A stretch of DNA of 33,660 nt from Catajapyx aquilonaris (GCA_000934665.2 JYFJ02004252.1:1-33660), one strand, 5' to 3'. Positions 720-31,050 are shown, numbered from the stretch's first letter. A program made the numbers and translations. The notes: a model not told the origin generated them from the sequence alone.

Positions 720-1680
720 CATAATGTTGGTTAGTAAGCGATGGGTGCTGTCAGAGGTGCTCATAACGGACCTGTTTGTCAAGGCTACTATTTCACGAAC
801 CCCCCCACAAATTAGAAGTGTTCGCAGTATATAGCCACCCCTTGTCTAAACCTGAGGACGATTGGTTGAGTATGGAGAAATGTTTAGTGACCCGATACGA
901 ACAGATGGTGCTACTAATGGGGGACTTCAACTCGAGAATAGGGGATGAAGTGTCATGTGCGGTAAATAACAACTTTGACCTTGACCTCCAAAGTGCCAGG
1001 GCGTCGAAAGACAAGGTTTGTAATTCTCGAGGCCAGAAGTTCCTTGAATTTACTGCAAACAATTCGCTAAGCGTGTTAAATGGAACTACTATTTCGGATG
1101 TAAAGGGTGAATTTACTTTTTCATCACATCTTATGTGTGAGCCCACCCCTATTGTCATTAGTGGAGGACTTTGAAGTGTTGAATTTACTTGGTTCTGATC
1201 ACTTTCCTATTAAGGGAAGTTTCTCTTTTCAATTTGCGAATGGACCGATGCCCAGCTCAGATGGTCGTAGGGAAATGTTGATTAGAAAACCTGCTGATTT
1301 ATCACATTGGAAGGACGAGGTCGAGGCAATTCTACTGCCGGACGGTGTGGCAGAGGGATACGTGCAGCGTACGCTGGACGAGGAAGCCACTTTTTAAAGT
1401 GATGAGATGAGGTCTCTTCTTAGGGGTGACGGTCTTTTGCAACAAATTAGTGTGAGTAAAAGTAGGCCTCCTTCAAAAAAAGCCGGCGTGGCTAGATGAC
1501 GAGTTGATCAGGTTGAAAAAGCGGGTGATGGCAAAATTGCAAAAGTGGAGGAGAACCAACACGGAGTCTACGCGCAATGATTACAAAGCATTGAACCGAA
1601 CATATATTAAAATGCGCCAGGCCAAGGAGACACGCCCTTGATCGCCTCCAGGGAGAAATATTATTTGCCCTACAGCCATG
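720..1680 (+). pseudogene. Non-LTR retrotransposon ORF2 fragment: AP endonuclease and linker, frameshifted
   Basis: Motifs AVY, LLMGDFNSRIG, SKDKVCNSRG, LNG...GEFTF, GSDHFPI and WLDDEL are spread over several frames. Confidence 0.85.
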
Positions 1681-1689
1681 CTCGTGGCA

Positions 1690-2760
1690 TTTTTTCTGAT
1701 GTATCTGCATTGTGGCAGGAAAGTCAAATACAATCTCGCGAAAATGTTCAGAGCATTTTAGCTAATCACAATGTTAATGGTGACATTAAGAGGGAGGTAA
1801 ATGCATCATTATTGGGACAGGGGATAGAAATTCCATCAGACTACATAATGGAGAAGAGTTTCAAAGAAAAGGGCTCGTACGTTCCTGCTACTGAATACAT
1901 ATTGGGCACAAAATCTCCAACTTTTCAATTGTGTCAATAACAAAATCTTTGCCGAGTCTGTTGACCAATAAAACATTTCTCTCTTATGCTCTTAATTCCC
2001 ACACTAATTACCCACAACTTAGAGACTATTGTGATGGAGATAAGAAACGCTCGGAAATGCAAGGTGACTGTAAAATCCTAGATGTCATTTTGTATTATGA
2101 TGATTTCCAAATCCCCAACCCACTGAAGTCCAGGGTGAGGAATTATAAGATTGGTGGTTTGTATTAGCCTACACTTTGGGAAACATTCCACCAAACATTA
2201 TATCACTTGTTGACACCATTCAGCTTCTGACTCTGTGCCGCACTCTAGACATTTAAAAGTTTGGATTTGGGGAGATTTTAGGTGTTTTCATCAATGGAAT
2301 GAACTATTTGAGTGCTAATGGCTTGAATATTTGCATTCAGGGTGTAAATTATAATTTTATGTTCGGTTGGCAATGTTAGTAGCAGACAATTTGGGTGCTC
2401 ATTCTCTGGGGGGGATTTTTGGAGTCATTTACTTGCCAAAGTTCTTGCAGATTTTGCTCAACAAAAAAAAAGAAATTATGGTAACACATTCACATCAGAT
2501 CAATGTCTTGCGCGAACAATTTCCAGTTATGATCGGCAAGTTCATTAAGTTGCAGGAGATGAGACTTTGGCTACTCAATATGGAATTAAACGTGATTGTC
2601 CCTTGAACAACGTGTGTGGGTTTCATATTGTGACAAGTTCGGCACCTGACATAGCACATGATCTATTTGAGGGAATTGGCCCACGTGTGTTGGGGAATTA
2701 TTTTACTAATCTCATAAGGTCCAAATTATTGCACAATAGAATATGTCAATTATTGTATCA
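1690..2760 (+). pseudogene. CACTA/EnSpm (animal type) transposase fragment, degraded
   Basis: Motifs LYYDDFQIPNPL, TLGNIPP, VADNLGAHSLGG, CRFC and YGIK...PDIAHDLFEG, with stops and frameshifts. Confidence 0.85.
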
Positions 2761-2774
2761 CTAAATTCCCCCCC

Positions 2775-3720
2775 TCCCCCCACGTGGAATATTGTGCTCC
2801 TGTCCTGATGACGATGGGGACGAGCCTCCGACAGACGTTGGAAAGGGTACAACGAGCCGCCCTACGATCCTGCCTAGGAGCAACACTACGGACGCCAAGC
2901 AATGCACTATACGTGGAAGCTTATGAACCCCCCTTGTTACACAGGTGGACATATCTCGCTCGGTGCTACGGAGGCAGGCTGAAGCACACAACGGAGGCCG
3001 ACCATCCCGCCTGGGAAGCGATTGTATCAGCCAAACCTCCACGGCGAGGAAAGAAAGAATCCCCGGCATGGCTCATGCACAAAGCTCTGAACGGGCTGAG
3101 CAACCACGGACCCGACCCAAGCCCCCTCACAAGCTCACCACAACACGCCGGCCTCACAGCCTCTCTAGCCCCACCGTGGCACACACCCACACGAGACTGC
3201 TTCCCGGCCCTCATCCAAAAGGTTCCCAAGACCCGCACCCACCCCCACACACTCCTCACGGCCACCCTGAAAACGTTGGACGACCGACACCGAGGCAGGT
3301 TGAGAATATGGACGGACGGATCCAAAAACACGACACAGGGGAGAACGGCGGCCGCTTTCGTGGTCCCGTCAGAAGCCATCCAGGAACGGGTGCGCATCCC
3401 CGACGACTGCTCCATCCTCACCGCCGAACTCGTAGCCATACTGGGGGCGCTACAATGGGGAGCAAACTTTGCATCCCAACCCCTTGTAGTGCTCACGGAC
3501 TCACGGGCGGCGGTGCAGTCAATACAGGCGGTGCCGGAGAGAACATCCAACCCGGCACTGTGCTGGAAGATCAGACTAGCATGCGAGCGACTGGGGAAAA
3601 CTGGCTCCGGTGCCACGATACAGTGGGTCCCAGGACACTGCGGACTGACGGGGAACGAAACGGCAGACCGAGCGGCCAAAGCAGCGCTGGGCGGAAACCA
3701 GATAGATGAGAACCTCCCTA
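2775..3720 (+). pseudogene. Non-LTR retrotransposon (I-group-like) RT thumb plus RNase H fragment
   Basis: EYCAPV...LERVQRAALR...GA..TP..AL..EA, then RNase H motifs WTDGSK, AELVAI, LTDSRAA and WVPGHCGLTGNETADRAAK. GC-rich block with abrupt edges. Confidence 0.92.
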
Positions 3721-3839
3721 TTCACCAATCTTCATGTGCAATGACTGTAAAACATGCATAAGGTGTTGTTGAGCAAATGTGCAGTATGCTTTCTAGGAAT
3801 AAAATGTAGGTTTGTGCAAGAGAATGGACGGCGATAAAA

Positions 3840-3932
3840 AAATTCTGGCTTCATTTTTAAAATTAGCGCCTGTTATGAATCGATAAGGAACAGCTAAAGT
3901 AGTTCATGTAACAAAATTATTGTTGACCAGTG
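3840..3932. mobile_element. Possible DNA-transposon terminus (CACTG-type, Chapaev-like)
   Basis: Ends in AAAATTATTGTTGACCAGTG (reverse complement CACTGGTCAACA). Partner end not found. Confidence 0.35.
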
Positions 3933-5039: not shown

Positions 5040-5139
5040 TCAAACCGTCCATTTCTAATGACAGATTTGGAATCAGCGGCGAAGATACTTATTGAAACAC
5101 ATATCATAACCTCAGAAAATATACCCTTGTCGAACAGTG
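5040..5139. mobile_element. Second possible CACTG-type DNA-transposon terminus
   Basis: GATTTGGAATCAGCG subterminal motif and end TTGTCGAACAGTG, resembling the end at 3932. Confidence 0.35.
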
Positions 5140-5419
5140 ATAATTTAATTTTATGCCAAACTTTTCATGGGAAAAGCAGAAAGAAATTAAAGCTCTGTTA
5201 ATTTTTAAAATTGCTTGTATTAAATCTCCAAATGAAATGTATTAATAAGACATTCATGTGGTCTTCATTAGGGTCGCAGTTAAAGTACAATATTTCAACT
5301 TTGGATAGTCCTGCGTAATATTGGGTTCTTGGCTCCAGTGTCCTGTTGCATAGAACTTTTACCATCACTCACCTCTTTCAGTGACTGCAGCAGTGTCCTG
5401 TTGCACAGAACGGAAAAAT

Positions 5420-5655
5420 ATGGAGAGAATCGAAGGAAGGCAAAAGGGACATATTGTGTTCGTCTGGCGTAACTTTCTGTACAGAAAAAGCAGAACGGCC
5501 GGAGCATCGGAGTACTTCCGATGCGTCCAGGATAGTTGCCCTGCCCGTCTCGTGGTGAAGAATGGAATGTTCAACGAAACAAGGCAACACAATCATCGGG
5601 CGAGTGAAGAGGAGGTGGCTCGTCGTCGGTTGCAGGCGAGTTGCAAGCGTTTTTA
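5420..5655 (+). pseudogene. FLYWCH zinc finger, N-terminus of a MULE-type transposase
   Basis: NFLYRK...YFRC...CPARL...HNH pattern. Confidence 0.8.
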
Positions 5656-6329
5656 CAGGACAGCCAATGACTGATGGGGACAGCATCCGTGAGAGGATGC
5701 TGGCCCTCAGAGAAGAGGAGATCAGGCTCCTAAGGGTACAGCTTAAAACGCAGCAAGAACTAACGGAGGCGACCAAGAAAATTCAAGCCCTAAAAGAGGC
5801 AAAGGCTCGGGCTAGCCAGGTAATGTATGTGTAATGTACAATAAATTTGTGTTTAAGCCAATCTGAGTTTTTTGGGGGGATACAGCTTGGAGCGGACCGT
5901 CTCAAACTCCATGTTAGTATGGGTATTACTTTTCAGTACAAGGTAAGCCACATATTATGTCAGCTGAAAAGTTAAAGCAATCCTATAGGAACATAAATAG
6001 TTAACATTTAATGTTAACTAGTATTAGAGGTTACACTGATTAGTCTTCTTGATGATCTAGAAATTTTCATATGGGCGCTCTTATCCCCCCTGCCCCCCTT
6101 CCCGTCTTCCCCAGCCTTCCCCAACTGATGACTCGCATTCCTTCCCATCCCTGACCTCCACTCCTCTCCTCCTACGATTCGTGTGCCCGGCAGAAAATTT
6201 GTTCGCGCGAACTGGGCTCACTTCGCGAGGGCATAAACAGGCCTTGAGGTACACATGGAAGAGACTTATCGTATCTAGGCTCAGTGATGGTGGTCCATGT
6301 AGAAATGGCAATTTGCAGAGTTAAGTATT

Positions 6330-7064
6330 TTCACATTTTGTCAAAAGAAAGTGTTGAGAATTATCCCCATATACGAGATAAGTTAGTAAGATGCTGGTGT
6401 GCATTTGCCAATGCCACGGGACCCTTGAATCGCTGAAACGTTAGTGTAATGCTCATGATATTGCTCATGTTGAAGGTTTATTTCGGCTTCCAACAAAACT
6501 TTCCCACAACACACCTGCCTTGATTGAGTGCTACAGCATGGCAATATTGGGCAAAATCGCACTCTGATCTGTTCTGTTGCTGTTTCTGAGCAAAGTAACC
6601 ATTGAACCATGACACTGACTAATACCGTCTGTCATTCTGTAGGCCTAACTTCCGCCGACTATCCTGTCGGGCTGGTGGAAGCGCTTACGTACCACTCCCA
6701 CTAGACACACATGCAATACATACACCATGACCATACCACACACATACAACAATGCACCGGCGGCGCTAACAAGCGGGAGCTGGCCAGGACCTAGAGGTCC
6801 GGCTGCGCTCACCCACTGGAGCTGGCCAGGTATAGAGACTACACACACCATGTACCGGCGGCGCTCAAATGAAGTGGCTTAGCCAAGTCTATGATGTCAC
6901 AATTTCATTATTTTCATGTACGACAGTGAACTCTAATGTCAAAGTATTTTTGTACAAGTTTCTTATAATATTTATCTGCAGCCATCTGCTTAGCTGTACA
7001 TTTCCACTTCCCAACACTGATAATTTTTACCTCTTTTCAGATCATGAAGGTTCTGAGAACCTGC
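6330..7064 (+). repeat. Copy 1 of a dispersed repeat (mostly intron of an EnSpm-associated accessory gene)
   Basis: 6374-7064 aligns by eye with few differences to 22810-22825 plus 23889-24338. Candidate donor GTAAG at about 6386 and acceptor TTTTCAG at 7040. Confidence 0.85.
6649..6867. other. About 220-bp insertion present only in repeat copy 1
   Basis: Copy 2 reads AGGCCTAATGAAGTGG uninterrupted. The insert holds three CCGGC.GCGCT motifs and two GGAGCTGGCCAGG motifs, with no TIR and only AA at the junctions. Confidence 0.85.
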
Positions 7065-7715
7065 GCCCATTGTTAACGCATTGGAGGTCATGTTTTTAGA
7101 GCATGGTTATCCGAAGACGCTGTTAGCAGATAATGGAACGCAATTTCAGGTCAAGGCTTTGACCCAGTATTGTAAAGCCGCAGGTGTGAAGCTGATATTT
7201 AGCCCCGTATATCACCCCCAAGCGAACTATACGGAAAGGGCTAATCAGGAGGTCAAAAAATACTTAAGAGCTTTTACTGAAGCTCATAAGGATTGGGATG
7301 TGCTTTTGCCGCAGATGGTCCATGCTCTGAATAATTCGGAGCTGGAAACCACGAAAACTACATCCAATGCCTTGCATTTTGGCCGCCCTGTAGCCTCCCC
7401 TGGAGAATGGGCTTATTTTCCAGAGGAAGAATTGCCCACGACTCAAGCTGCTTATCTTGAGAAGATAAGCAACCGACTCAAAATAGTGCTCGAGTTTGTC
7501 ACCCGCAGCTTAAAGAAAGCCCGGGACAAGCACATGGAGCGCTTTAACAAAGGCAGAAGACATGTGCAATTCGCAGTGGGCACGCTGGTTCTTCGAAAGA
7601 ATCTCAAGCTGTCTGGTGCTGGAAATGGGGTAGTACAATCTCTATTGGGAAAGTACGAAGGACCTTTCAAAGTCCACGAGCAGGTATCGCCCGTAACTTA
7701 TCGCCTGTCATCTAC
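7065..7715 (+). pseudogene. Ty3/gypsy integrase C-terminal half with GPY/F motif
   Basis: GYPKTLLADNGTQF, YHPQANYTERAN, FGR, FAVGTLVL and YEGPFKV. Confidence 0.93.
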
Positions 7716-8372
7716 AGAGGGGGCGATCAACCCGGAAGCTCCGGCGCCTGGTCCTGCTGCGGACGATGGGCCTCAGATGGCGGCGATGGCAGCCCGCGTA
7801 GCAGCTTTGGAAACGGAGGTCCAGCTGCTCCGGGGTAACAATGTTGCAGAAGGCAAGATGGAGGAGGACCTCCTTGCGGAGTGAGTTCTGTCGCCGAACT
7901 TTCTTGTTGCGGCCTGGCTCCCTCCCCTTTGGGGCCAGGTCGCCCTTTGTTTCATGAACCCCCCCCCCCCTCCTCCCCCCAAGTGATCCGTGCAATCATG
8001 GGAAAAGATTTCCATGCTGAAGTGGAGTGAAAAGTGGTGCGTCATGTTGTCAACGAACAGTTTTNCCCCCCCCTTTATGGGACCTCTCTATCCCCCCTGT
8101 ATTTTTCAAGTTTTTCACACCCCCCCTCCCTAGTTATGGCGCTAGTTTTGCACCAACAATTATGGTGAAGTGAACTGCAAAAAAAAAGCATAGAAGAAAG
8201 AACACTATGAAAGCTGGAATGAGAGTTTGTTCATTTTACGGACGGAGATTTTTCTTTTCTTTTTACCTGTTAGTAGCGAGACCGTTTTTTTTTCTTCCTG
8301 TTTGGGTAGTGATTGTGGGGGTTCATGGGATGTGTGTTTCCCCTTGGTCACACAAGTTTGCGTCCGGGGTTA

Positions 8373-8705
8373 TGTCGCCTAGTGGGCGATGGGCTTAGTG
8401 CCAGTTTTTGTACCTCCCGCTCCTGGCTCCCCTGGGGGCCGCAGTTCGGCTACCCTTCTCGGCGTGGCGGGTGGCTGGGAAGGGGAGTGGGGGTGCCAGG
8501 GGAGTGGGAGGTGGGAGGGAGAGAGAGAGAAGGGAGCAGGCGACCAGCGAGGGTGGACGTGTTCTCGGAAGCTGGAGCCCTGTAAGTTGTCTTGTACGGT
8601 TTACGCCATGTACCTTATCCAGAGTAACCATTAAAGTGGTGGAATAGGTTCCCTGTGTTGTGCTTTAGAGTATGACCCTTGTCCCCTTAGTGAAGAAAGG
8701 CGACA
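8373..8705 (+). mobile_element. LTR (333 bp), probably a 3' LTR of a gypsy-like element
   Basis: Termini TGTCGCCT...AGGCGACA, ATTAAA about 70 bp before the end, and a G-run just upstream. No 4-6 bp TSD. Confidence 0.7.
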
Positions 8706-9334
8706 TAGTCTATGCTGCACATACATAAATCCTAAAGAATAATGTTGATGGGAGTTCAAGTTTCCAATTAACTTCTAGTGGCTTTCAACCTTTTGTTGAT
8801 TGAAATATGCACTATGCTTATGAAGTTAGGAAATTCACAATTATTTCCTCTGTTTGAGTATAATATGCACTGAAATATACTTTAAAGATGCTGCAAAAAT
8901 TTACTGTGCTGAGTACAAATGAGGCACTGTGCCATTTCAAGTAATTGAATATTGTGCAAAATTAATCCAAAATATTCGGAAATACCAAACTAAAAATATG
9001 GCACGTTTCATGGGTAGAAATGAACAGAAAGTAAACTAACTGCATCACTGTTAAGCCCCCCTATTATTTATGAATTTTTGTGACTCACATTTGTCACTGT
9101 CAAACATTGAACATTATTTCAGTACAACAGGGCTTTCACCTATGCTGTAATACGTATCGCTTCTTGCTGTAAGCATTGAGTTAATAATTATGTGGAGAAA
9201 ATACTATGATTAAAAGGAGACTCCCCAGACAGAGTTCGAAGGGAAAGGACGTGTGCATTGGAGCGGTCGAGTGGTGCCTAGCATTCCTTCAGTGAGCAAT
9301 AGGTGCATCGAACTTTACATTCACGGGGGGTGCT

Positions 9335-10232
9335 ATGGCCACCAAGGCTGAGATCAAGGCCCTGTTGGACGATTTGAAGACCGACATAACTAGTCAGCTG
9401 GATAAATCGGTGCAGCGGCTGGAGAACAAGTGGTCCACAATCCTGGAAGACATTCAAAGTGGGCACCAAGACTTGGTGGGACAGCTGGGTGTGGCCAATA
9501 GCCGTATCCTGGAGATGCAGACTTCGCAGTCGGCTCTACTGAGGAAAATGGACGATCTGGAAAACAGGGCACGCAGAAACAACCTCATTTTCCATGGCAT
9601 CCAGACGGAGGGGGGGGCTGGAAACATGGGAACAAGTTGAGGGTCAGCTGCGCAATTTTATTACCAAGTATAAATTGCATGACCGCCATTGAATTTCAAA
9701 GGGCGCATGTTCTGGGGCGACCGGGGAAGGGGGCGCCACTGATAGCCGCGTTCCTGCGGACAAGGAAACTATTCAAAGTCGAGCGAGTAACCTTAAAGGA
9801 ACTCCGATGTCAATCAATCAAGATTACTCAATTAACGTCCGCAAGATCCGGAGCAGGCTAATGCCGTACTTGAAGAAGGCACGAGAGGAAGGGAAGAAGG
9901 CAACCCTTAATTTAGACCAACTAGTGATAAATGGGACAAGGTACAGGTTGGCTGAAGATGATGGAAGCCTGGTTCGGGTTTCCAGTGGTGCCTCCAATTC
10001 AGGAGCATCGAACCAGAAACGTCTGCGTAACTCACCGGGGGACATTCGGGATGCGAAGAAGATGCTCAAGGATCATTATAAGGAACCGAAGGGACATGAG
10101 CAAGGTGATAGGGCTGCGTGGGTGGCCCGAATCGAAGAGGAACAGCAGTCAGAGGATGAAGAATCTGACGAACAGGGTCAGACCCAATGGAAGCAGATGG
10201 CCCAGCGGACGAAGAAGAAGCCCACTTCATGA
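9335..10232 (+). pseudogene. LINE ORF1 (coiled-coil/RRM, CR1/L2-like), frameshifted
   Basis: Coiled coil followed by DDLENRARRNNLIFHGI, RAHVLG, INQDYS..VRKIR..L.P.LKKAR..GKKA and LVING. Confidence 0.85.
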
Positions 10233-10234
10233 AC

Positions 10235-10790
10235 CAGCTGTTCTTTACAGCATTATGTAGAAAACTACATTGATGACAGCATTCAAACCTTGGACATTTT
10301 TTTACGGACAACTGCGGTGCCCAAAATAAAATTTTTACTGTTTGCCATTTCCTCCTCAATTTGGTTTCATCCGGAAAATTTCGCCAGATCACACATCATT
10401 TCCCTGAGCCTGGGCATTCCTATCTACCATGCGACCAGGACTTGGCTGTTATCGAGAAGGAAAGAGTTGGTATATACCACACTGGAGTATATCGAAACAA
10501 TATGCAATGCTTCATCTGCTTTTCAAGTAGTGCATAATGCAGAAGGCTGACTTCAGGGATCATCGTGAACACCTTTTCAATAGTTACAAGAAAACTACAA
10601 AGTCAGTGGTTGGGAAGTCATGCTTTACAATCTCCAAGTACAAGATGCTTCTTTATTCCGCTGATTCTCCAGGCATCGTAGCAGTGTCACCAAACATGAA
10701 TGTGTACCCACAGATCTCTTTGTGAAATTCAATTTCTTGAAGAAGAATGTTAATAATGGTGCAGCGGATCTCAAAGAGTCTCCCCAGTTG
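10235..10790 (+). pseudogene. Sola1-type transposase fragment
   Basis: Reading across a frameshift gives TDNCGAQNK and HHFPEPGHSYLPCDQD.AVIEK. Confidence 0.75.
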
Positions 10791-10799
10791 TATCCAGCA

Positions 10800-11130
10800 A
10801 GCCGGAGTGCCCCTGCTGCTGGCCTCGTCTCTTTTGCTACACTGGAGACATCGATGTACAAAAGGAGGAGATGCGTCAGGCCAGACGTCCCATCAAACAC
10901 CGACCACTTCACCCAGCAGCTGGTGCTGGACCAGAATCTCAGTCATGCGTCGCATGGCCAGCCCTTTTACACCGACACGTTAACTGGGACCGAGGTGGAG
11001 GGAACATTAGTCATTTTCCTGTCGGAAGAACTATGTAACGGGCTCTTTAGAAACTCCGCGGAGTTGCACATGGATGGTACTTTTAAGACTATCCCACAAA
11101 CGTTCAAACAGCTCTTCACGGTGCACCAAG
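10800..11130 (+). pseudogene. MULE (MuDR) transposase fragment with first catalytic Asp
   Basis: SMYKRRR..RP..P and LHMDGTFKTIPQTFKQLFTVH. Confidence 0.88.
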
Positions 11131-11134
11131 ATTT

Positions 11135-11810
11135 CGCTTATTCTTCATGTACACCTGAGACAAGCAGCCGTAATCCAGTATCATGTATGCCTGAGACTGA
11201 TGAAACAATAGCTGACAAAGAACAAAATTTTAAAATTTAAAAAAAATCACAGGGAAAGTGTAACCAAATACTGCTAAAAGCGATTGCTTATGAAGCTCCT
11301 GCAAAGTGGCCGTAAAACAATTATTGATTTAGACACATTCCTATTTCCAACCTCAAGTGATGGAAGACATCTGGATGCGAAGTGGTTTTTCAAGATTATA
11401 AAAAACGGGGAACATGTGAAAAGGCAGTGGATGATAATTATATAGCCCATCTAAAGATGCTATTTTTTGTTTCCCATTTTTACGTTTTTGCAAATACCAA
11501 AAAAGCACACAATTTTCTGACTTTTTCAAAAGGTTTTCAAGACTGGAACCATTTGAATCCCACTGTCCAAATTCATGAAAATTCATCTCACCACAGAGAA
11601 TGCTGCATGATGTGGAAAGACGATTACGAATGGGTAAAACTCTGGATGGTGCAGTACAAAATAGCCTTAAAAAAGACTGAGAAATGGCGAATCATTCTGA
11701 AGGTTGTAGTCGATGTTATAATTTTTTGTGCAAAAAAAAACAACAACTTGGCACTGAAAGTCTGAATAGTGTTGGAAAATATTGCATAGAGCTGCGAATA
11801 TACCACAATT
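11135..11810 (+). pseudogene. hAT transposase N-terminal fragment (TTF-type zinc finger, ZMYM1-like)
   Basis: LYSPSKDAIFCF, GFQDWNHL...IHENSSHH..C...W and WRIILKVVVDVIIFCAK.NLAL. Confidence 0.8.
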
Positions 11811-11829
11811 ATTTTCATGCAAAGTGTTA

Positions 11830-12150
11830 TAAAAGAATCACCCTCTTTTCAGAATCCTGACAGTGTCGGTATAGTGTCCGACCTTCTAGTCCAGTCCCAT
11901 AAGAACGGCTCAGACGGCTTGAAGGAGGTCTGTCAGAAAATCTTGTCTGACGCAATCACAGCGGGGAGCATCATAAGAATCCTTGTCGCTGCGCATGAAA
12001 CCAATTCACTGGAGGTGGTTAAGGAGAAGGCCTTCAAATATTCGGTAGCCAATCAAGACCAGGTGCTTCGTACTCCAGATTTTGAAATTTTGCTGGGCGC
12101 TGAACACCCTTCTCGGATTATACAAATATCCTGGAGAAATCTGACAGGGA
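11830..12150 (+). pseudogene. Fragment of a SPOP/roadkill-like gene (end of BTB plus BACK domain)
   Basis: DLLV.SHK...GLKEVCQKIL...ITAGSIIRILVAAHE....VKEKAFKY...N.DQVL.T.DF..L...HP follows the SPOP C-terminal pattern. No MATH domain or BTB start. Confidence 0.7.
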
Positions 12151-12610
12151 ATAGGTTACCATAAAGGACTCACACACGGCATATCTCTAAATCTATATAC
12201 AGTAAGTAGCGAACATACAGTCTTCCGTGGATCGCCGTAGTAGTTGTGTGGAGAGATCATCACTGGTTGTGTTGCTCTCCTGAAGGTCTTGACAACGGCA
12301 TGATTCTCCTTCCTACTCCTGCAAAACTGGAAAGCTGCAAGATCCTCAGTCGATGACACCACGGTCTGGCCATCTGCATGCAAACGATGATGGGACACTG
12401 GCTCTAAAACGCGACAGAAAACTGGACTCTATTTGGTCCGCAAGACCTGAGGGTGAAATTCCCAACCATTCTCACGTACCATTATGGTGGCGACCAGGCC
12501 GTGGTCTGCCTGCTCGAGTAGCGTACCATGGGCAAACAGCCCCACTGCCTAGTGCAAGCAGACTCTGAAGAGGCTGAACCAGGAGGAGTGGGCGAGAAGG
12601 CAGGTGGCTT

Positions 12611-12744
12611 ACCAGGGGCACCACCACGATGGTCCGTGATCTGTTGACCCGCCTCAGCCGGACCACCGACACCCTGGGTGAGCCCCTCCTGAGGCAAGAG
12701 GTACTGCATGGGACATCTGGAGGGAGCAACAGCGCCATATCGCC
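12611..12744 (+). pseudogene. Probable Dada-like transposase fragment, part left of the P insertion
   Basis: TRG...LL..LS..TDTLGEPLL, then a frameshift, then DIWREQQRHIA, which continues in frame after the P element is removed. Confidence 0.55.
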
Positions 12745-18404: not shown

Positions 18405-19255
18405 AGCGAGTCAACTGATATAGGTGCAGTGAAGAACTTGTGCGTTTGTGTAAGGTTTGCTGATGGACGCCACGTCGTCCCAAAGTTATGGAGATTAGTT
18501 CAAGTCTTCAGTTCTCGCACTCCTGAAAATGCTGCTGAGGGTGCAACAGCTAGTCGCCTGTTTACGGAATTACAAAAAACATTTGACGAAGTTAATATTC
18601 CAAAGGAGAATCTGATTGGGTTCGCCAGTGACGGGTGTAATACTATGTTTGGATGCAATAATTCAGTTGCACAACGAATGACTGTGGATTACCCGGGAGT
18701 GGCGCTCACCAAATGTATATGTCACTCTTTACATTTGTGTGCAAGTGAAGCGTGCAAGAAACTGCCCCGTGCCGTAGAAGATTTAGCCCGCAACATATAC
18801 GGCATGTTCAAGAACAGCAACAAGCGACAAGCAGAGTTCGCAGATTTTTTAAAAAAAATGATGTGGACGTCCACAAGATGGCTGTCCTTGCAACAAGTGG
18901 TCGACCGAATTCTCAACAATGGATTCCACTGAAGGCCATCGAATTAAAGCTGGTGGCAGCGCAACATATCATTACGACTGTGGAAGACCCAACAACTAAG
19001 CTATATTATTTGTTTCTTCAATGGATCCTGCCGACGTTCGCGGAATTGAACAAGCTGTTTCAAGGAGATGGTGTCCTCGTTGCAACAGTCCACGAACAGA
19101 TGACCCAAACGTACAGATATATTCTCTCACATTACCTGGAGCAGCGGTATGTTCATCAAACAGATATGAGGAAAATTGATCAAAAACAATCCGCAAAATT
19201 TTTTGCCGCTGCCCCAACTGTACCTCGGGGTGTCACTCGCGAACATGGATAATGA
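18405..19255 (+). pseudogene. hAT transposase core fragment (ZNF862-like)
   Basis: ESTD, GFASDGCNTMFG, CICHSLHLCAS, SNKRQ and TRWLSL, with frameshifts. Confidence 0.92.
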
Positions 19256-20339
19256 GCCGGAGATCAGATGCAGGTCTCCCGTCCATTGGTAAAACCGTCT
19301 ATCTGCACTTTCGCGCCGAAATGAGTTAACACTGCCTCGGAAACCATCTGTGCTGTATCCACCGGAAAACCGAACAGAGAAGCGTCTATCTGCACCCTAT
19401 ACGGAAATATAAGCGTGTCACAATCATCTATCTGCAAGATTATTGCTGTAATGCCAAGGCAGAACCGTCTAGCTGCTAGCCAATCAGGGACGGAGGTTCT
19501 GGTCACATCCAAGATGGTTGATTGATTGATTAATGGTTTAATGGCGCAACAGCAGCAATGGCTATACTGCGCCAAGCACCTGTGACGTTGTAGGGGAGGG
19601 CAGGCAAGGCCACCCCACCCCCAACGTTGTCTCCAGCGGCGTCCAACGGCGTCTCCAGCAGAAGTGGATAGGGAATGTGGGACTTCCATTTGAGGCCCCA
19701 TTGTACCGGATCCTTTCAGTGGATTTGTTTGAACCGTGCCAGGTAAGTAATTGAACTAGTCGTAAATCGTAAGCGCAAGTAGTCTCGTGCGAAAAGAAAA
19801 CAAGTGCTTGGATAAGGCGGGTTCAAAAATTTCCATTATTCTGAGCAGATAGACGGTTTCGCCTATGGAATTAGGCGGACACATGGAAGAGGAGGGAAAT
19901 GCAGCCTGCCAGCTAGGTGCAGATGAAGCAGCCCCTAACTTGCGTTTACAAGTGGCTGCAGCTCCAGATGCACCAGGTAATTCATCCAAAGTATAGTACG
20001 TTTAAAAATACAGAGGTTAAAATCAATTTTGGTACCGGTACGCATAAGGGATAATAACTAGGCATACAATTGTATTTGAAATTGTAGATCAAAATGTCGA
20101 CGAAGGTAATGTTGCTGGACCCAGCACACAGATCCACCCGCAACCCCATGATGCAGACATTGAGCTGACAGATAGCTCACCATCAAGCGATTGGAAGCCA
20201 TCTGATGAAGGTGAAAGCGATTCATCATTTGATGAGGGGTTAAAAAAGTTATGTAAAGAAGCTGGGGTGGTTTCCACACGACGGATCCAAGCAGGAAGGC
20301 AGACACACACACAAAAAAGGAAAAGAGCTCTGGATGCAT

Positions 20340-20780
20340 TCGACCACTACGCGGTGCATCGTAGCCAGCCTTGAATCATGCCGAGATCAGCACTATTCCT
20401 TCCGGACAGTTTCCTTATAAATAGGGGCGTTTTGCCTTAAGAGAGAGGACCAGAGACGACAGAAGAGCGGACACCACGGGCGAGGCTACAGAAGACCAGA
20501 AACCCAACCGATCCGCTCAGTACACCCCAGGGCCAGGAGAAGACATCCTCTTCTCCTCCGAACCAACTCAGACGTTGATTCCCGCACACATAACCAGTAA
20601 GAGTACCTGTGTATTAAATTGTGTATTTATTCTTGAGACTGCAACCCCCAGAACCTGTAGCGTTGAGCCAAAGGGTGTAAAATTCTCACTCTTCTTCTTA
20701 GCAGTTAAAATAAACTCTTTCTCATTTACTGTTGAGTAAGTGTACTTATTTCTCTCATCCTGCGTTCACACAGAAAACTT
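20340..20780 (+). mobile_element. Partial LTR-like segment
   Basis: TATAAATAGGGG at about 20416, a purine-rich stretch after it, and AATAAA at about 20709. No clear TG...CA pair or TSD. Confidence 0.45.
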
Positions 20781-20819
20781 ATAGTCGACTGATCCTGCAC
20801 TCAAATAAATAAATGTCGA

Positions 20820-21961
20820 TGACACAGGAGCCATGGAAGCAGATGTTTATTGATAAATTTAAGAATGAGCGGAAGCGATCCTATCCAGGCAAGGAGGTCA
20901 CCCTAACCCCTAAGAAGAAGATATCAGCTTCGTGTTCCGGCCATTCTGGCAAGCAGAAGATATGCCAGAGGGGGAAAACGAAGACTCGTTGAAAAGACAC
21001 ATAATGTATATGAAATTACCTTTGTACTGCTTGTTATGAAAGATGTACTATTGAAATCACATGCCATGTTTCTTTTAGATGGATGAAAAATGACTACAAG
21101 AAAAAGGAAGGGGATGCAGCTCGAGTGGCAGAGCTAATGGATTTGACCTTTTCCAGCAAATGCCTAATAAACCGGCCCATAAGGGAGTGTCTGTCACAAT
21201 TTCCCTACTTAGCAGAACCACAACAGGTTGGCTAAGTTATATACTAGCATTGCATTTCTGCCTTAAAGACAAAATATGATACTTCCTATTAGCAACTGTT
21301 TCCTTTCTTTTTGTCTTTCTAGCTCATTCGAGAGGTGACCAGACTCCAAGGCATTGACATGACGAGTGAGCTCCACAGGAATTTAGGTCGTCTTCCTGCA
21401 GCACTTGTCAGTATGCTACCACCTCGAGAGAGCTCAGGTATTTATTTACATGGTCCATATTTAGAGTGTATTATGTTAGTGTTTATCATAAAGTTGTTGC
21501 TTTCAGAATTTTCATGCCAGCTACTGGTCCAGCTTCCAGAATATTTGGGAGATCGACTTGATCATCTCTTTTTGGTAAATATAGTTTACAACTTGTGTGA
21601 GGCGGAGTGTATGGCTTAGAATATTTTTTTCCCTGATTTCTTTTCTGACATTTTCAGAAACCAACAGACGATGTGATTTGCAGCACCTCAGGCCCTTCTT
21701 CTGCTTGTCCATGAAGGGGATCAAGAAAACATGGATTGCCACACAATACTGAAATTAGCAGCGGAAGGAGAGACTGTCTTTAAAGACTGTGAACCCGTAC
21801 TTGGAATAGCTGGCTTCCTTGCTCTCCATGTAGTATTTGGCCTCAAATACTACAAGCAAGATAGTACCATTGGACCTTGGGAGCAAGCATTTGGGTTAAC
21901 ATGCACTGTTAAATCAAAAAAGAGGAAGTTGGTGGCACTTCTGAAGGAATTGAGGCAATGA
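20820..21961 (+). pseudogene. Multi-exon fragment of an EnSpm/CACTA-associated accessory protein gene
   Basis: PWKQMFIDKFKNERKR, PEGENEDSLKRH, VAELMDLTF, SQFPYL and FLALHVVFGLKY, separated by short GT-AG introns. Confidence 0.65.
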
Positions 21962-22074
21962 GTCCACAAATTCCACAAATACGGGCAATTTTGTAGGGGG
22001 CATCCCAGGCTCTGCCAGTGCTACCCCCAGAAAAGATCTTGGAGGGGGGGGAAGTGGTAGATGTCGATGTGGAC

Positions 22075-22485
22075 CCCAGGTCTTGTCCGTCCACGGCGAA
22101 GAACGGAGGACCAACAACAATGTGGAGAGTTTTCACGCGAAATTGCTCCGCAAAATAGGGTACCACCCAAATGTGTGGCACTACCTAGGTAATTTAGCAA
22201 CTCGGAAGCACTTCATTGTTATAACAGGGTTATGTAATTTTGCATGGCAGACTTCACAGACGCTTCCAAAATATTTCAGAGAAACTTCGCGGGATTGAAT
22301 TCGCCGCACAGCAAGACTTGGCACACTCCTTGCAAGGCCTCCCGATCTCTCGGCCTAAGAAGCACAAGTATCTATTGCAAGATAGGCAAATTGTGATGGC
22401 CAACGACAAGTTGAGCAGAAACTTGTACACAGTAAGGCAATTTCTCCGGAAAACTGCCCACACCCTAACGGATGGGATTTCCTAG
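22075..22485 (+). pseudogene. MULE transposase C-terminus with catalytic Glu and retained intron (22189-22279)
   Basis: RTNNNVESFHAKL...HPNVWHYL|EKLR..E, spliced in frame. Confidence 0.85.
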
Positions 22486-22549: not shown

Positions 22550-22809
22550 AAATGACGCTTCCAATATTTCCATTCAGGAAAACTGCGTGAGACGGAGCTG
22601 GCAGCCAGGCGTACTCACCGGGGGCGTGCCATTGCGAGGGCGAAAAAACACAAATATGTGGTCCAAGACAGACGCATTGTGGTAGCCAGCAACAAGCTGG
22701 CTTCAAATGAATACAACATACGGCAGGTTGTGGCCAATACTGCGTATGCTACTCCTTACACCGCCATCGAACCCGAGGTCAATGGCGACGACGACCAGCA
22801 GGGGGGAGG
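22550..22809 (+). pseudogene. Second, diverged MULE last-exon fragment
   Basis: KLRETE...KKHKYVVQDRRIVVASNKL parallels KLRGIE...KKHKYLLQDRQIVMANDKL. The intron-end motif GACGCTTCCAA is shared. Confidence 0.75.
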
Positions 22810-22992
22810 CGAGATAAGTTAGTAAAGGCCGCTTCACAAACTCGACGTTGCGAAAGCGGGGCGTGTGGAGCGCGAAAAACTTGCGAGGGGCAATTCCCAA
22901 ATGCTGCGTGCGACGGCCGAGCGAAAGCGTGGCGCTAGCGTCCAACCGGGTGGACTTTCTGCGTGTGAGGAGCGAGCGCAGAGGAGGGGAAG

Positions 22993-23167
22993 ATGGCGGC
23001 CGCCATGGCTAAAAAGCGTAAGCTCCTCAAGGTGGAGGAAAACGACCGCATTATTGCCCTGGTCTGCTCCAAGGAGGCACTATGGAACGTCAAACTGAGC
23101 GTCTATAAGGGCGTCCGGCTCCAAAACTCCCTGTGGGAGGCTATATCTGAGGAAACACTGATCCCAG
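22993..23167 (+). pseudogene. Harbinger MADF/Myb-like protein, first exon
   Basis: IIALV....ALWN.....YK.......LWEAI, ending at a G|GT donor. Confidence 0.8.
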
Positions 23168-23172
23168 GTTAC

Positions 23173-23716
23173 CGAATTGTGGCTGCCAGTATCTCGGCAG
23201 CGGTTATTGCCTTCCTGCCAAACCTGTGGGACTGGTCCTGATTTCGTTCTACGAGAGCAAGCAGGGCGTCAAATCTATTGGGAGTCATTCTGTAAAATTT
23301 CTTAAAATACTGTGTATCATACTTCCAAAGATGTTGCATCTGTAAAAGTATAATTCTGTGAGTGAAAATGAAAAATCTTTTTTTTTCCCATTGACAATGT
23401 TGCGAATGGCCAAGGAACTATTTTGAAATTCGACGGAAACTTAACCTTGCCATTGTCGCAAACTCGCTTTCTGTAGGTCTTGTTCGCCACAACGGGTGGT
23501 TGCCCCATGTTCTGGGCCGTTGCTCCTCAAAAAGCAGCGACTCCAGAAGCAACCGCCTTTTTATTGTTTTGTTTTTTTGAGCAGCCACTTCCGACTTCGT
23601 CCTTGCAACTCTTGCCGACTTGGTACAAACCCACCGCCACCGTGCTTCTCTAACGCATCTAGTAACAAAGACTTCTTCTGGAGGAGAAGCTGCCTTCTGT
23701 CAGGGTCAGCCATATT
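23173..23716 (-). pseudogene. Harbinger transposase N-terminal fragment
   Basis: The minus strand at about 23173-23315 reads YFKKFYRMTPNRFDALLALV...RKAITAAEILAATIR and ends at a GTAA donor. Confidence 0.8.
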
Positions 23717-23888
23717 GCACAAAAGACGACAGCCGTTCGCTCGCTGTTGCATCGCAGTGTGTGTGAAACAGCCTCGTAAATATTCGCTCGCCAGGACGAT
23801 TTTGGCGCTAGTGATCCCTACTCGTTTTTACGCAAGCGCCCCGCTTTCGCAGCGCCTAGTTTACGTCGAGTTTGTGAAGCGGCCTTAA

Positions 23889-24700
23889 GATGCTGGTGTG
23901 CATTTGCCAATGCCACGGGACCCTTGAATCGCTGAAACGTTAGTGTAATGCTCATGATATTGCTCATGTTGAAGGTTTATTTCGGCTTCCAACAAAACTT
24001 TCCCACAACACACCTGCCTTGATTGAGTGCTACAGCATGGCAATATTGGGCAAAATCACACTCTGATCTGTTCTGTTGCTGAGCAAAGTAACCATTGAAC
24101 CATGACACTGACTAATACAGTCTGTCATTCTGTAGGCCTAATGAAGTGGTTTAGCCAAGTCTATGATGTCACAATTTCATTCTTTTCATGTACGACAGCG
24201 AACTCTAATGTCAAAGTATTTTTGTACAAGTTTCTTATAATATTTATCTGCAGCCTTCTGCTTAGCTGCACATATCCACTTCCCAACACTGATAATTCTT
24301 CCTCTTTTCAGATCATGAAGGTTCTGATGAGAACCTGCTCCTGTTTCTTTTGTTGGTGAAGGTTGCTCTGAAAGAAGACACAGCAATTTTCAGCAGCAGC
24401 AAGAAGGCTGCAGGATTTCACCCCAGCATTGTAGGAACTGATGAAAATGTCTTCGAGGAGAACACCAAATTCTGCCTCTACGTCGACAAGAAGAACGTAT
24501 TAACCTGTGTCGATGGGCTCACAGCCATCACCCTTTGGTTTGCAAGCTATTGGCTATTTGACATCAAATATTCGCGCAAGTCACACAAGACCCTGTGGCT
24601 ACTTCACAATTTTGTGTACAAGAAATGTTCTGGGAGAGCCCCACGTAGTGTAGTCAGTGTTTTCAATATTCATCTTCAAGTTCAGTATTGCGTTACTGTC
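23889..24700 (+). pseudogene. Copy 2 of the dispersed repeat, continuing into the last exon of an EnSpm-associated accessory gene
   Basis: Matches 6390-7064. The exon after 24311 encodes LYVD...AITLWFASYWLFDIKY....KTLWLL. Confidence 0.75.
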
Positions 24701-25335: not shown

Positions 25336-25961
25336 GCTGTCTCCGCCGGACCTCCGCCATCAACTTGATGCAAAAGATGGACTCGCCTGACCACGAGTCC
25401 CACCATCCCGAACCAGCCAGCCACGCCGAAGTGAGAGAGATCCCCAGAAGAAGAGTTCCAGAGCTCTCCGCCGCAAGCCAGCTCTATACCTCAAGAACCT
25501 GGTTGATAGCGTTCGGGCTCCCAAATGGAAAAGTCCCAAGAAAGAATGGCCCTCTCTTCAACGTGCGTGATCTGTCGCTGGTCTGTGCTCAACCTGGTCG
25601 TGTCAGTTCTGGACACAAACCGTCGCATCCCCCCAAATCGAAATCTCGCTCACCAACGCAGCCGACAGACCGGGTCTCCGGGAGCTCTGGGAATAAAGAG
25701 GGTATCTCGAGGAACTCCTGTTTCGAGTAGGCGCCGATGACCTGATGAGTCGACAATATCGGATAGGATTCTCCATGATGCACTTCATCGCTAATCACAT
25801 CGTCATTGTCGACATGAGATCAGATCGATGCTACCTGGCCCCGTACTCCACATTTCTATCACTAATAGACCTCATCCGAGGAAGGACGTCTGTGTGGCTC
25901 TACTCAACATTTGCCCGTGAGGTGAATCCGGCAGGGGATGGCGTGCCTGCCGGCTCACCAT

Positions 25962-27180: not shown

Positions 27181-27384
27181 TGTACAGGCTGTGTATTTTT
27201 TGTCATGAGACCCGCCAGGGGGTGTACAGGGGGACCCAGTCGACACCGTCCGAGCCTCGCATTTCCTTGTACCTCTACTGGTCGCACTAAGACCGACACT
27301 TTTGTCCTTGTTTTTCTCCCGCCTCCCTTTTCCTAGCTCATCATTATTGTTCAATTTGCATGCGGGGAACCCAGTCTAACCACA

Positions 27385-27570
27385 AATGTGCTGGATGGTG
27401 TAAAGGGCCTCTCCTCCATGCCCTGCAGCATCACCAGCAGGAGTATGCAGGTCTTGGCAAGTTTCTTTTTCAATCCTGCATATGTTCGTGAAACTGCAGC
27501 CCAGGACATCAACCCCCGAAACAGCAATCAGCACTTACTCTTCCATCAGCTCCATCTGGGAAGTGCTTAG
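27385..27570 (+). pseudogene. Short hAT-like transposase fragment
   Basis: FFNPAYV.....DINP.....L..HQLHLG resembles the segment at 19130-19230. Confidence 0.45.
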
Positions 27571-27619
27571 TATAAAAAACTAAGGACAAGCAAAGTCTGC
27601 AAGATTTTTTTTTTTTTTT

Positions 27620-28520
27620 TCAGGTGCCAGCAATTCTAAATTGAAGTTTACGAACAAATACAAAACAGGATGCCAATGAGAGAGGAGTTCCTGGAGAACC
27701 CTGCAGAAGTACTGGCAGCCCTGGAGAGGGACAACCACCATCTCATCCAGCACCAAAAACATGGCCACTACAAATTCATCTGCCACCAAGTAGGGCGGAT
27801 GTCCATAAATATCTGGACGAAATCAAATCAGCTGGATCCAGCAGCAGGATCATTTACAGTGCCTCCAGCCATACGGAAGGAAATTATTCACAGCCTCTAT
27901 GCGACGATGTTGAACTACACTTCGTAAGTGAATTTATGTTTGGAATGAGGGAATCTTTTGAAGTAAGCATACTAGTGGTAAAACACATAATGGTTTGTGT
28001 TTCTTTTGCAGTGTACCAAATCCTTTTCGATACGCTCAAGTAGCAACGGGCCTTGTGACAAATTATCCTGCGTTGCAGGATATTCGTTAATCTCAATCAA
28101 CCAGATGTAAGCCATATGTAAGCATTTACATGTTGTGTAATGGAAACACAGTGCACTCATTCGTTACTAGAATTAAGGTTTCATATCGTTTTGGGTTCAT
28201 ATTTGTCGATTTTCTATTTGGAACCGATATTGTTAAGAGCCGTGAAGTTTCTCTGCGGAATATTATTTACTGATGAAATGCAACCATTCAAACACATGCC
28301 ATGCATCTTGGAGCCGTTCACGTAGTATAAAATACAGATACGACCGGAGTCGCATACGGCATACCCCATTTCAAGAAGGAAACTGATCGGCAAAGAGAGT
28401 TCAAATGCAAGTCCCAGGACGAGTACTGCCTGCACCGTAATGCTGGAGGGGGAAGACGAAATTTCAATGCAGAGGCACAAAAAAAGAATTCCTAATGAGG
28501 AGCTAACCAATGAAATCAAC
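27620..28520 (+). pseudogene. Further EnSpm-associated accessory gene fragments
   Basis: RKEIIHSLY|...P....YAQVATGLVTNYPALQD across an intron, and LEGEDEISMQRH, similar to EGENEDSLKRH at about 20970. Confidence 0.55.
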
Positions 28521-29039: not shown

Positions 29040-29190
29040 TGTTACTTGTCCGTCAGCACTAACCTGAATGCAGAAAAGAAATTTGGAAATGCACAAAAAG
29101 ACCAAAGAAGGTATGCTCTTGCAAAGTTTGTCACAAAGGGTTTAACAGGTGGGGGAGATTTGTGACCCATTTTGAATACTCATAAGAGGG
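29040..29190 (+). mobile_element. Possible piggyBac 3' end
   Basis: Degenerate Cys-rich stretch, then TGACCC...AGAGGG followed by TTTAA (imperfect TTAA). Confidence 0.3.
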
Positions 29191-29410
29191 TTTAATTTTA
29201 TAGCAAGACCCTTGAAAGACGGGCGGAATAAAACACTTGAAAAAAAGCAACAACAATATTTTGCTTGTGGCCTGGGGTAGGCTTCCTATTCGGGGCACCA
29301 TATCGCTGGGGAGGGGAAGGTGTAGCCTGTAACGTTAGCCCATGATCCCAGTGTCAAATCTGAGGCCTTATCCCTGGCCAATAATTAGTATTTGACTTGC
29401 AGCACGACAA

Positions 29411-29950
29411 GTGTTAGAGACCCCTTCACTGACGGCCAACGTTTCTTTCTACAAATGTCTCCTGTCAACATACAACTTGACTATTCGGGACTGCTCCCCA
29501 GACGCAGAGAGCACTGGCTGCTACATATGGCACGAAGCAATCGGAAAAAGAGGGTCGGAAGAGATTGCTTCCAGCGTTTTAAAGAAACTTGAAAGCCTGC
29601 CCGAGTGTGTGACCCACGTCGTAACCTACTCCGATACATGCGGGGGTCAAAATAGTAACATCAACATGGCCTGCATGTTTTCGTTGTTTGTCAGCAAGAG
29701 CAGCCACGTTGATTGTGTAGATCAGACGTTTCTGTTGCCGGGACACACGCACCTCGAATGTGACGTAGATCATGCTCGTATTGAAAGGGCAAAAAAGACT
29801 TCTGAAATACCCATCATGGTGCCGCGGGACTGGTTCCAATTCGTCCGAACTGTAAGGGGCAAAAAGCCATTTCAGGTTCATGAAATGAGTCAGGAGGAGT
29901 TCATGTCATTTTCAAAAATTGCCCAGGAACAATTGACTCGGAGGACACAT
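29411..29950 (+). pseudogene. Sola1-type transposase catalytic fragment
   Basis: FYK..L..YNLTI, YIWHE..GKRGSEEIAS, YSDTCGGQN and FLLPGHTHLECDVDHARIE. Confidence 0.85.
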
Positions 29951-30159
29951 TCCATATTTTACACGGGTACTATGCGAAATTTCTTCACTTTTTCCCATAT
30001 TCAACTTAAGAAAGGCCACATTTGGCAAACTGATTGTGTCAGAAAGGGGGGGGGGGGATTGGTTCAAATAAATAATCAATAGTAGGCTGCAGTATTTTCG
30101 GCCCCGTAACAATGGCGCCCCAAGTAACAAAAAAGTCAATTGATCTGGACTAGGCCTAC

Positions 30160-30395
30160 ACATACCACTGGAGCAACTGATTCTCACTCCCCACAAAAGC
30201 CTCACATTATTACATTTTACAATAAGAGAAAAGGGTTGGCGTGGTTATTGTTAATCAAATACAAGCAAGCCCAAAGGACCAGTCGATGGCCGATGCCTCT
30301 ATTTCATCACCTGCTGAATGTCGTCGGAGTAAATTCTTGCATATAGTGTATAGCTTTTCACACAAATGGCGCATGAGAAGACGACTTTTCCTGGG
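30160..30395 (+). pseudogene. piggyBac transposase C-terminal fragment
   Basis: KPHIITFYNK.KG, RTSRWPMPLF..LLNV.GVNS.I and RRLFL. Confidence 0.8.
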
Positions 30396-30469
30396 GGGGG
30401 GGGGGAGGGACAATAATTATGATGACAATAGCCTACTCCAAAATAAAAGCTGTCAGCCCTCCTTCAAGT

Positions 30470-31050
30470 AGAAGAGACAACAATGCGTGTGCAAAGGGAA
30501 GAACTCACACTGACATCAAAGTATGGCTTCAATCAAAACAATAGACCACCTAGGCGAAACTGTCGCGTATCTAGATGAAAATCTGTGGTCTTGAAGAAAA
30601 TTAAAATTCATCGAACCAAGTGCACCGGTCTCATAAGGGAGTTCATAGCACCAGAACTCCACAAGGAACTAGTTGAGGACGTAGGAAATCAGCATTTCAA
30701 CTTGATCCTAGATTAATCGAACGACAATTCAGATGTCAAGTGTCTAGCGATAATGATAAAGTATTACTCGATCAAGAAAAGGACTACCGGCTAATTCCAT
30801 TGCCGGATGGATGTGGCACGGTAGGCATTGACGTCAGTCATCTTACAGGCTCTAGAAGAAAATAATCTCCATGTGGACGCTTCTGGGGATTGGTGTGGAC
30901 GGGGCTAGCGCAGTGGTCAGGAGTCATCATTCAGTAGCCACACTACTGCAGCAGCGAGTTCCTCACCTAGTTGCTATACGACGTATCTGCCACTCTCTTC
31001 ACCTGGCTGCAGGAAAAGCCTTCGATGAGCTACCGAAGCATCTTGAGTGA
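30470..31050 (+). pseudogene. Another hAT (ZNF862-like) transposase fragment, heavily degraded
   Basis: HRTKCTGLI...IAP, FNLILD*SND, GIGVDGASA and ICHSLHLAA.KA..ELP. Confidence 0.8.

Follow-up and report, generated by a model that had tools for sequence, protein, structure and literature searches.

The stretch of DNA described here, a window of 33,660 nucleotides (nt) from Catajapyx aquilonaris (JYFJ02004252.1:1-33660, assembly GCA_000934665.2), is eukaryotic, with a GC content of 0.38-0.55, and carries between about 0.7 and 31 kb an array of transposon pieces whose layout suggests a PIWI-interacting RNA (piRNA) cluster transcribed from one strand. The array is a mosaic of truncated coding pieces from unrelated transposon families, with at least 15 pieces of at least eight superfamilies in 30 kb. 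The closest protein relatives of the pieces are arthropod, as judged from the best matches of the hAT and Gypsy searches. Apart from one complete P-type element, the verified pieces measure 216-981 bp and are separated from their neighbours by gaps of 0-240 bp. Four of them, namely a hAT piece, the RNase H part of a long interspersed nuclear element (LINE), a Ty3/Gypsy integrase and the middle piece of a FLYWCH-MULE transposase, were both confirmed and placed by alignment to reference proteins.

The most conspicuous property of the array is its orientation, which was not stressed in a preliminary description of this DNA. The Pfam scan was run on 466 stop-to-stop open reading frames (ORFs) of at least 40 amino acids (aa), 216 on the + strand and 250 on the - strand, an input that favours intact pieces and lets badly decayed ones escape. 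Transposon domains were matched at E <=0.01 by 11 of the 216 ORFs on the + strand and by none of the 250 on the - strand. Four of these 11 frames reach the curated cut-off (RNase H, FLYWCH, THAP and P-type transposase), and the remaining matches mostly cover partial profiles (rve 53-102/102, piggyBac 297-348/349, DUF7869 62-123/192), the pattern expected of truncated pieces. Seven other matches at E <=0.01 belong to unrelated families, all below the cut-off, three on the + strand and four on the - strand. All tblastn matches with E <1e-3 to hAT, LINE, MULE and Gypsy references likewise lie on the + strand. When the split MULE is counted once, the tool-supported insertions between 0.7 and 31 kb are oriented 10 of 10 on the + strand (two-sided binomial probability about 0.002), and with weak matches included 13 of 13 insertions share one orientation. 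Internal DNA repeats are all direct except for the inverted ends of the P element; besides these ends, the repeat search gave two inverted-repeat pairs, at 19282/19845, where no clear target duplication was found, and at 22838/23837.

The continuity of the sequence was examined over the first 20 kb by comparison with contigs which an independent assembler had produced from three sequencing runs (X1, X2 and X3) of one sample, probably the assembly's own. The support obtained in this way is independent of the assembler, not of the data. Contigs without a single difference were found in all three runs for 331-2814, 5054-5700, 8539-9287, 10200-12774, 13378-15332, 16743-17366 and 18382-19305. Two of them, 331-2814 and 10200-12774, bridge at single-copy depth (about 37, 32 and 20 in X1, X2 and X3) the junctions in two of the three regions that the preliminary description had chosen as examples, which answers for these two the doubt about misassembly raised there. 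Run X5, from another sample, gave cover of high-copy repeats only and no second haplotype. Most of the mosaic lies at 1-3 times the single-copy depth even at 85% likeness, so that close relatives of the pieces are few or absent in this genome. Exceptions with a high copy number are a repeat at 176-356 resembling a short interspersed nuclear element (SINE), the intervals 4.7-5.3 kb, 17.3-18.7 kb and 19.3-20.0 kb, a Harbinger 3' region and the ends of the P element. The interval 17343-18676 is a very high-copy repeat of short tandem units with a depth of about 20,000. Within it, a poly-C run at 18363-18395 holds at least one of the two Ns of the window, so that the assembly is uncertain there.

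P, MULE and Harbinger elements

The complete P-type element occupies 12745-16772 on the + strand. Its 32-nt inverted ends are 100% complementary, and an identical 8-bp target duplication flanks it at 12737-12744 and 16773-16780. The interior comprises a THAP exon at 12942-13163 (Pfam THAP, E 4.2e-9) and an intact transposase frame of 807 codons at 13829-16249 (TNP-like RNaseH_N, E 2.2e-33; GBD, E 1.1e-10). With inverted ends, an 8-bp duplication, a THAP domain and an RNase H-like transposase bearing a GTP-binding insertion, the element is a member of the P superfamily. The depth corresponds to a single copy in its interior (13378-15332) and to about 10-20 times this value at its ends, which indicates that it is the only full-length P copy detectable at >=85% likeness and that internally deleted copies exist elsewhere. 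The element at 12745-16772 thus seems to be the only full-length copy in the genome. One contig joins P positions 13424 and 15866 with 16 other letters in between, and such fillers of 11-16 nt at the deletion joints of other P copies are the sole filler DNA seen. A joint leading from 12733 to 16781, which skips the element, was considered as an empty-site allele and rejected as too weak, its shorter side being 26 nt long with 11 unlike letters. The favoured reading is that the P element is the youngest insertion of the array and still complete. It provides the feature typical of nested clusters, older sequence into which a complete younger element has inserted with a target duplication.

Pieces of a FLYWCH-MULE transposase were found at three places on the + strand. 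The N-terminal FLYWCH piece lies at 5372-5650 (Pfam FLYWCH, E 1.2e-7, in the ORF 5354-5671; aa 89-178 of reference P0135, E 4.6e-13). The middle piece at 10731-11153 contains the pre-MULE region and the first 20 or so residues of the MULE domain, and the C-terminal part at 22074-22479 consists of two exons (22074-22196 and 22306-22479). Among 12 reference proteins, all align to the middle piece, 11 to the last and four to the FLYWCH piece at E <0.01. The frame around the middle piece (10665-11237) has 103 relatives in a phmmer search, with a MULE domain in each of the 14 longer relatives scanned; at the same E <0.01, six of these 103 relatives match the FLYWCH piece. The same references align in order at 5.4, 10.8 and 22.1 kb, across 17 kb, and the three pieces are similar in GC content (0.47-0.50). 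At the first split only about 10-25 reference residues are unaccounted for. We read these pieces as one old copy that was probably split by about 5 kb and about 11 kb of later material. The C-terminal part retains a frame-preserving GT..AG intron of 91 nt at 22189-22279, with splice sites and phase read directly from the DNA, and its second exon unit is followed on the same strand by a tandem duplicate at 22556-22819 (46% identity over 69 aa to 22225-22482).

Two Harbinger copies, both on the + strand and both made up of a transposase end and a 3' region, lie at 6248-7068 (copy A; Pfam DDE_Tnp_4 117-158/158, E 1.4e-3, in the ORF 6248-6433) and at 23780-24341 (copy B; blastp to copy A, E 1e-9). 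They share the start and the end of a near-identical 3' repeat, whose depth in copy A is 5-9 times single copy, and a 221-bp segment is present in copy A and absent from copy B. The DNA of copy A is 94-97% identical to 23886-24341 of copy B. Just upstream of 6387/23886 (6290-6387 and 23819-23886) the two are about 50% identical as protein, and the upstream blocks of the near-identical stretch reach 97-99% DNA identity. This abrupt switch could stem from gene conversion or from a recombinant element. The Gypsy integrase piece begins at the base directly after the repeat end of copy A (7068/7069). A MADF-like frame at 22969-23238 on the + strand (Pfam MADF, E 3.3e-3) may belong to copy B.

Other pieces and the borders of the array

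All pieces described next, up to the borders, are on the + strand. An internal piece of a hAT transposase at 18312-19244 (153 relatives, best E 2e-65), contained in a single-copy contig (18351/18382-19305), corresponds to aa 198-475 of 735 (62% identity) and, according to tblastn, is interrupted by a single frameshift at 18914. A piece of a second, different hAT family lies at 30582-31047 (tblastn E 1.6e-17 to P0031); it is 36% identical to 18297-18929 and overlaps the same transposase region. Nine reference proteins gave a weak match to the C-terminal region of a hAT transposase at 27280-27732 (tblastn E 1e-4 to 1e-3). A single split element was discarded as a source of the three hAT pieces at 11.3-11.8, 18.3 and 30.6 kb, because those at 30.6 and 18.3 kb cover the same transposase region at 36% identity and the first has no match among 120 hAT proteins at E <=0.1.

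LINE sequences are found towards the left end. An endonuclease piece at 767-1171 (Pfam Exo_endo_phos_2, E 7.3e-4, profile 2-73/117, below the curated cut-off) continues into an ORF2-like linker that was followed by eye to about 1480. The 3' part of a LINE ORF2, comprising the region after the reverse transcriptase and RNase H, lies at 2778-3758 in an open frame of 347 codons (Pfam RNase_H, E 6.6e-15, ORF 2718-3758) and corresponds to aa 746-1048 of the 1199-aa reference P0121 at 30% identity (tblastn). A paralogous contig aligns to it from 2777 onward. This piece is GC-rich and open in three frames. The idea that 767-1171 and 2778-3758 are parts of one split LINE was not supported by the references or by GC content: of the nine references that match the RNase H piece, eight have no counterpart in the endonuclease piece at E <=0.05 and one aligns to 1137-1211 alone (E 0.011), and the GC content is 0.44 in the endonuclease piece and 0.58 in the RNase H piece. 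Between the two, the single-copy contig 331-2814 includes a degraded coding piece of unassigned family at 1611-2700.

The piece at 7069-7881 is the 3' end of a Ty3/Gypsy pol with the C-terminal half of the integrase (Pfam rve 53-102/102, ORF 7057-7881). Its portion 7069-7734 corresponds to aa 1238-1447 of 1478 in P0235 (tblastn E 8e-21), and P0236 aligns as well. DUF7869 is represented twice, at 10277-10534 (Pfam 65-115/192, E 1.8e-5) and at 29396-30079 in a frame of 228 codons (Pfam 62-123/192, E 6.9e-4; Atlas score 0.96 to DUF7869 clusters), and the two copies are 37.5% identical. A weak match at 30128-30343 (Pfam DDE_Tnp_1_7 297-348/349, E 6e-3) is possibly the C-terminal end of a piggyBac transposase. 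The piece at 9335-9950, a putative LINE ORF1 in the preliminary description, gave weak coiled-coil Pfam matches. Weak matches to viral replicases (Pfam Mononeg_RNA_pol, E 0.006, and Vmethyltransf, E 0.027; 25697-25960 and 27645-28040) were also noticed, and virus-derived fragments were considered for 24.3-29.4 kb; neither PDB sequences nor two viral-contig scans lent them support. A frame of 124 codons at 11790-12161 shows a motif resemblance to the C-terminal BACK-like end of SPOP-type proteins and, if real, would be a host-gene fragment within the array.

The SINE-like repeat to the left of the array (176-356, - strand) derives from a tRNA, and its head at 279-350 is tRNA-like (Rfam tRNA, 39.7 bits; also found by ARAGORN). 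Contig depths over it sum to about 2e5, loose ends occur at 175/176 and 338/356, and it is among the most abundant repeats of the genome. To the right, two overlapping - strand frames of 205 and 339 aa at 32067-33492 belong to an unnamed arthropod-type protein (Atlas score 0.95 to unnamed arthropod clusters) with no match in Pfam at E <=1 or in the PDB; the motif 'AKYHK.C' recurs in them. These frames are adjoined by a 150-bp tandem repeat (31793-32119, 2.2 copies), and the features between 31793 and 33492 may be where the one-way array has its right border.

The patchwork of short abutting pieces announced in the preliminary description is borne out by the sizes and gaps given above. Its wording that most pieces are internal segments of 0.2-1.2 kb without terminal inverted repeats or target duplications does not hold for the complete P element, with its perfect 32-nt inverted ends and its 8-bp duplication. 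Reference proteins place the first hAT piece, the LINE RNase H piece, the Gypsy pol end and the middle MULE piece in internal parts of their proteins. Both Harbinger pieces, however, come from the 3' end of their element and not purely from its interior, which probably holds for the LINE and Gypsy pieces as well. Several family names were not confirmed, as the labels EnSpm, ORF1, hAT at 11.4 kb and SPOP have no Pfam support at E <=1. The EnSpm/CMC motifs at 1611-2700, where the ORFs have no Pfam match at E <=1, and the ORF1 motifs at 9335-9950 are a matter of resemblance; the stretch at 11.3-11.8 kb matches none of 120 hAT proteins at E <=0.1 (tblastn), and no SPOP chain is among the PDB sequence matches. 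What had been called Sola is supported as DUF7869, whose link to Sola is putative.

Origin and putative function of the array

We infer the origin of the array from its anatomy and its function from its layout, and consider it on balance probable that a one-way stack of transposons was built by insertion, nesting and deletion and most likely serves as a one-strand piRNA cluster. Whole elements would have inserted, often within older ones, and later deletions across element borders would have removed their ends, leaving sub-kilobase internal or 3'-terminal pieces abutting one another. This course of events is favoured by the intact P element, the trimmed Harbinger copies, the probably split MULE and the pattern published for Drosophila, whose piRNA clusters are described as gaining large insertions of young elements and as undergoing smaller deletions in old ones (10.1101/2021.08.20.457083). 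The array resembles that account in the complete young P element amid short old pieces and in the indel between the Harbinger copies; it differs in that this indel, known from one assembly, may be either an insertion or a deletion. Nested transposon clusters also have a younger element with target duplication in older sequence and, as the MULE pieces may show here too, an older element in collinear pieces, but ordinary nests are not known for a complete one-strand bias. As every recognisable piece is coding on the + strand, transcription would most likely proceed from the - strand. The locus would then give rise to one long precursor that is processed into antisense piRNAs, and insertions of opposite orientation would be lost or selected against. 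The preliminary description had spoken of a spacer-like memory of mobile elements, a notion that corresponds to the known concept of piRNA clusters and would fit the complete one-strand bias.

Several observations weigh against this picture. The verified pieces show one frameshift in about 5 kb of coding sequence, yet are essentially single copy at >=85% likeness, and open frames in single-copy pieces are not predicted by a slow decay of old insertions. The scarcity of lesions is due in part to the search, which used open frames, and in part to composition, as in the LINE piece that is open in three frames. About 9 kb of the array, at 19.9-22.0 and 24.3-29.4 kb, are without annotation, and the orientation is known from coding pieces, not from non-coding repeats. 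At the second MULE split (11153 to 22074) the catalytic core is absent, which a repair patch would also explain, and independent fragments would show the same collinear order in about one case out of six. Both elements that flank the array lie on the - strand. Finally, the bias of flamenco-like clusters is described as Gypsy-driven (PMC10643416), whereas here Gypsy accounts for one of at least 10 pieces.

The preliminary description had proposed two origins, full insertions compacted by deletion or the patching of breaks with sampled fragments, and the P element, the MULE and the Harbinger copies speak for the former. Under the latter, breaks would have been filled by copying short internal stretches of transposons, through synthesis-dependent repair with template switching or through capture of free fragments, and the pieces would never have had ends at this locus. 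Other organisms are known to take up filler DNA at breaks (PMC2671141, PMC1976456), and the reported cases are similar in their short internal fragments without own ends and in their retained introns. In the array, too, the pieces are short, 0-240 bp apart and without own ends, several single-copy pieces are intact in frame, and 11 kb of foreign material stands where the MULE core would be expected. However, the only filler seen is 11-16 nt long and located at P-element deletion joints, the whole element with its target duplication demonstrates normal insertion at this locus, the first split cost the MULE almost no sequence, which fits insertion over gap filling, and random patching predicts no strand bias. 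Retained introns, described earlier as several and taken as a clue to a DNA or pre-mRNA source, are verified in one case, that of the MULE, and they say little, since a DNA transposon is mobilised as DNA in any event and can be expected to keep its intron. Fragment-wise acquisition by break repair finds no positive support here and is kept as a minority reading that we regard as quite unlikely. It is also conceivable, with very low probability, that a transposon of the fragment-capturing kind carries the mosaic as its cargo. Pack-MULE, Helitron and CACTA carriers (the last of the Tgm-Express type) are documented in plants, fungi and bats as taking up gene fragments at the DNA level with introns kept (PMC5861414, PMC3288121, PMC1947982, PMC4778049), and MULE pieces flank much of the mosaic, whose fragments share one orientation and include one with an intron. 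The short internal DNA fragments are alike in both, but carrier ends and extra copies of the composite are lacking here: the repeat search, in which Helitron-type ends were not searched for, found no inverted ends flanking the mosaic, none of the 466 ORFs has a Rep/helicase domain in Pfam, the composite is single copy in the contigs 331-2814 and 10200-12774 and not a mobile repeated unit, and a length of more than 17 kb is far above the usual size of such carriers. That the junctions are chimeric joins of repeats, produced by the assembly, is hardly credible. The N-containing poly-C run at 18363-18395 and the interruption of contigs at several places by high-copy repeats would be in line with it, but contigs without differences cover seven stretches of the first 20 kb in three runs of the one sample.

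A more serious alternative concerns the function, not the history. The array could be an ordinary transposon graveyard or nest that underwent the same insertion, nesting and deletion and has no role in small-RNA production. Its one-way orientation would then stem from a long intron or transcription unit in which sense insertions were counter-selected, or from a local insertion bias. The anatomy would be identical in both cases, and most pieces have no genome copy at least 85% alike, hence few present-day targets for piRNA guides. An orientation of 10 of 10 insertions (13 of 13 with weak matches) exceeds, however, the modest antisense bias of introns, and the Pfam scans of the 466 ORFs revealed no host exon in the window. 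We therefore rate this explanation as rather unlikely, though worth keeping in mind. Going beyond the one-strand cluster built by insertion, nesting and deletion, one may speculate that the array acts as a functional one-strand piRNA archive of a non-fly arthropod, dominated by DNA transposons and not by Gypsy elements, whose entries were quickly laid down as, or cut to, sub-kilobase internal pieces by a repair-based process and did not decay slowly. Quick entry or trimming of this kind would explain the open reading frames in single-copy pieces. We give the idea little credence; if it were true, piRNA clusters would grow less like a passive trap and more in the way that spacers are acquired.

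Comparison with known piRNA clusters

The one-way layout would fit a one-strand piRNA cluster, as far as function can be judged from layout. Dense transposon remnants and a strong bias to one orientation, two hallmarks of such clusters, are both present. The dominance of Gypsy/ERV elements that characterises strict flamenco-like clusters is absent, with Ty3/Gypsy confined to 7069-7881. In flamenco-like clusters, transposon fragments are reported to lie mainly in one orientation, mostly opposite to transcription, and the array shares with flamenco and with these clusters its dense, truncated and predominantly one-way pieces (PMC10643416). The sizes given there range from 227 to 1085 kb, whereas the window here ends at 33.7 kb. 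In place of Gypsy elements, DNA transposons (MULE, hAT, P, Harbinger, DUF7869 and possibly piggyBac) and LINEs dominate the array.

A second point of comparison is offered by the P element. The X-TAS telomeric piRNA clusters of Drosophila melanogaster carry regulatory P-element insertions. The array resembles X-TAS and the emerging P-insertion clusters described in PMC13171184 in the presence of a P-type element within a candidate piRNA source locus. It differs in that the element is the only full-length copy at >=85% likeness, in that the host is not a fly, and in that the locus is known from sequence alone. If small-RNA data confirm the reading as a one-strand cluster, the array would be a compact and well-resolved piRNA source outside Drosophila, built mainly of DNA transposons and LINEs. 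The only detectable full-length P-type element of the genome would then lie inside it, a convenient situation for questions on how such archives gain and trim their entries. As it stands, the locus clearly exemplifies a layout already known, that of transposon fragments stacked in one direction.

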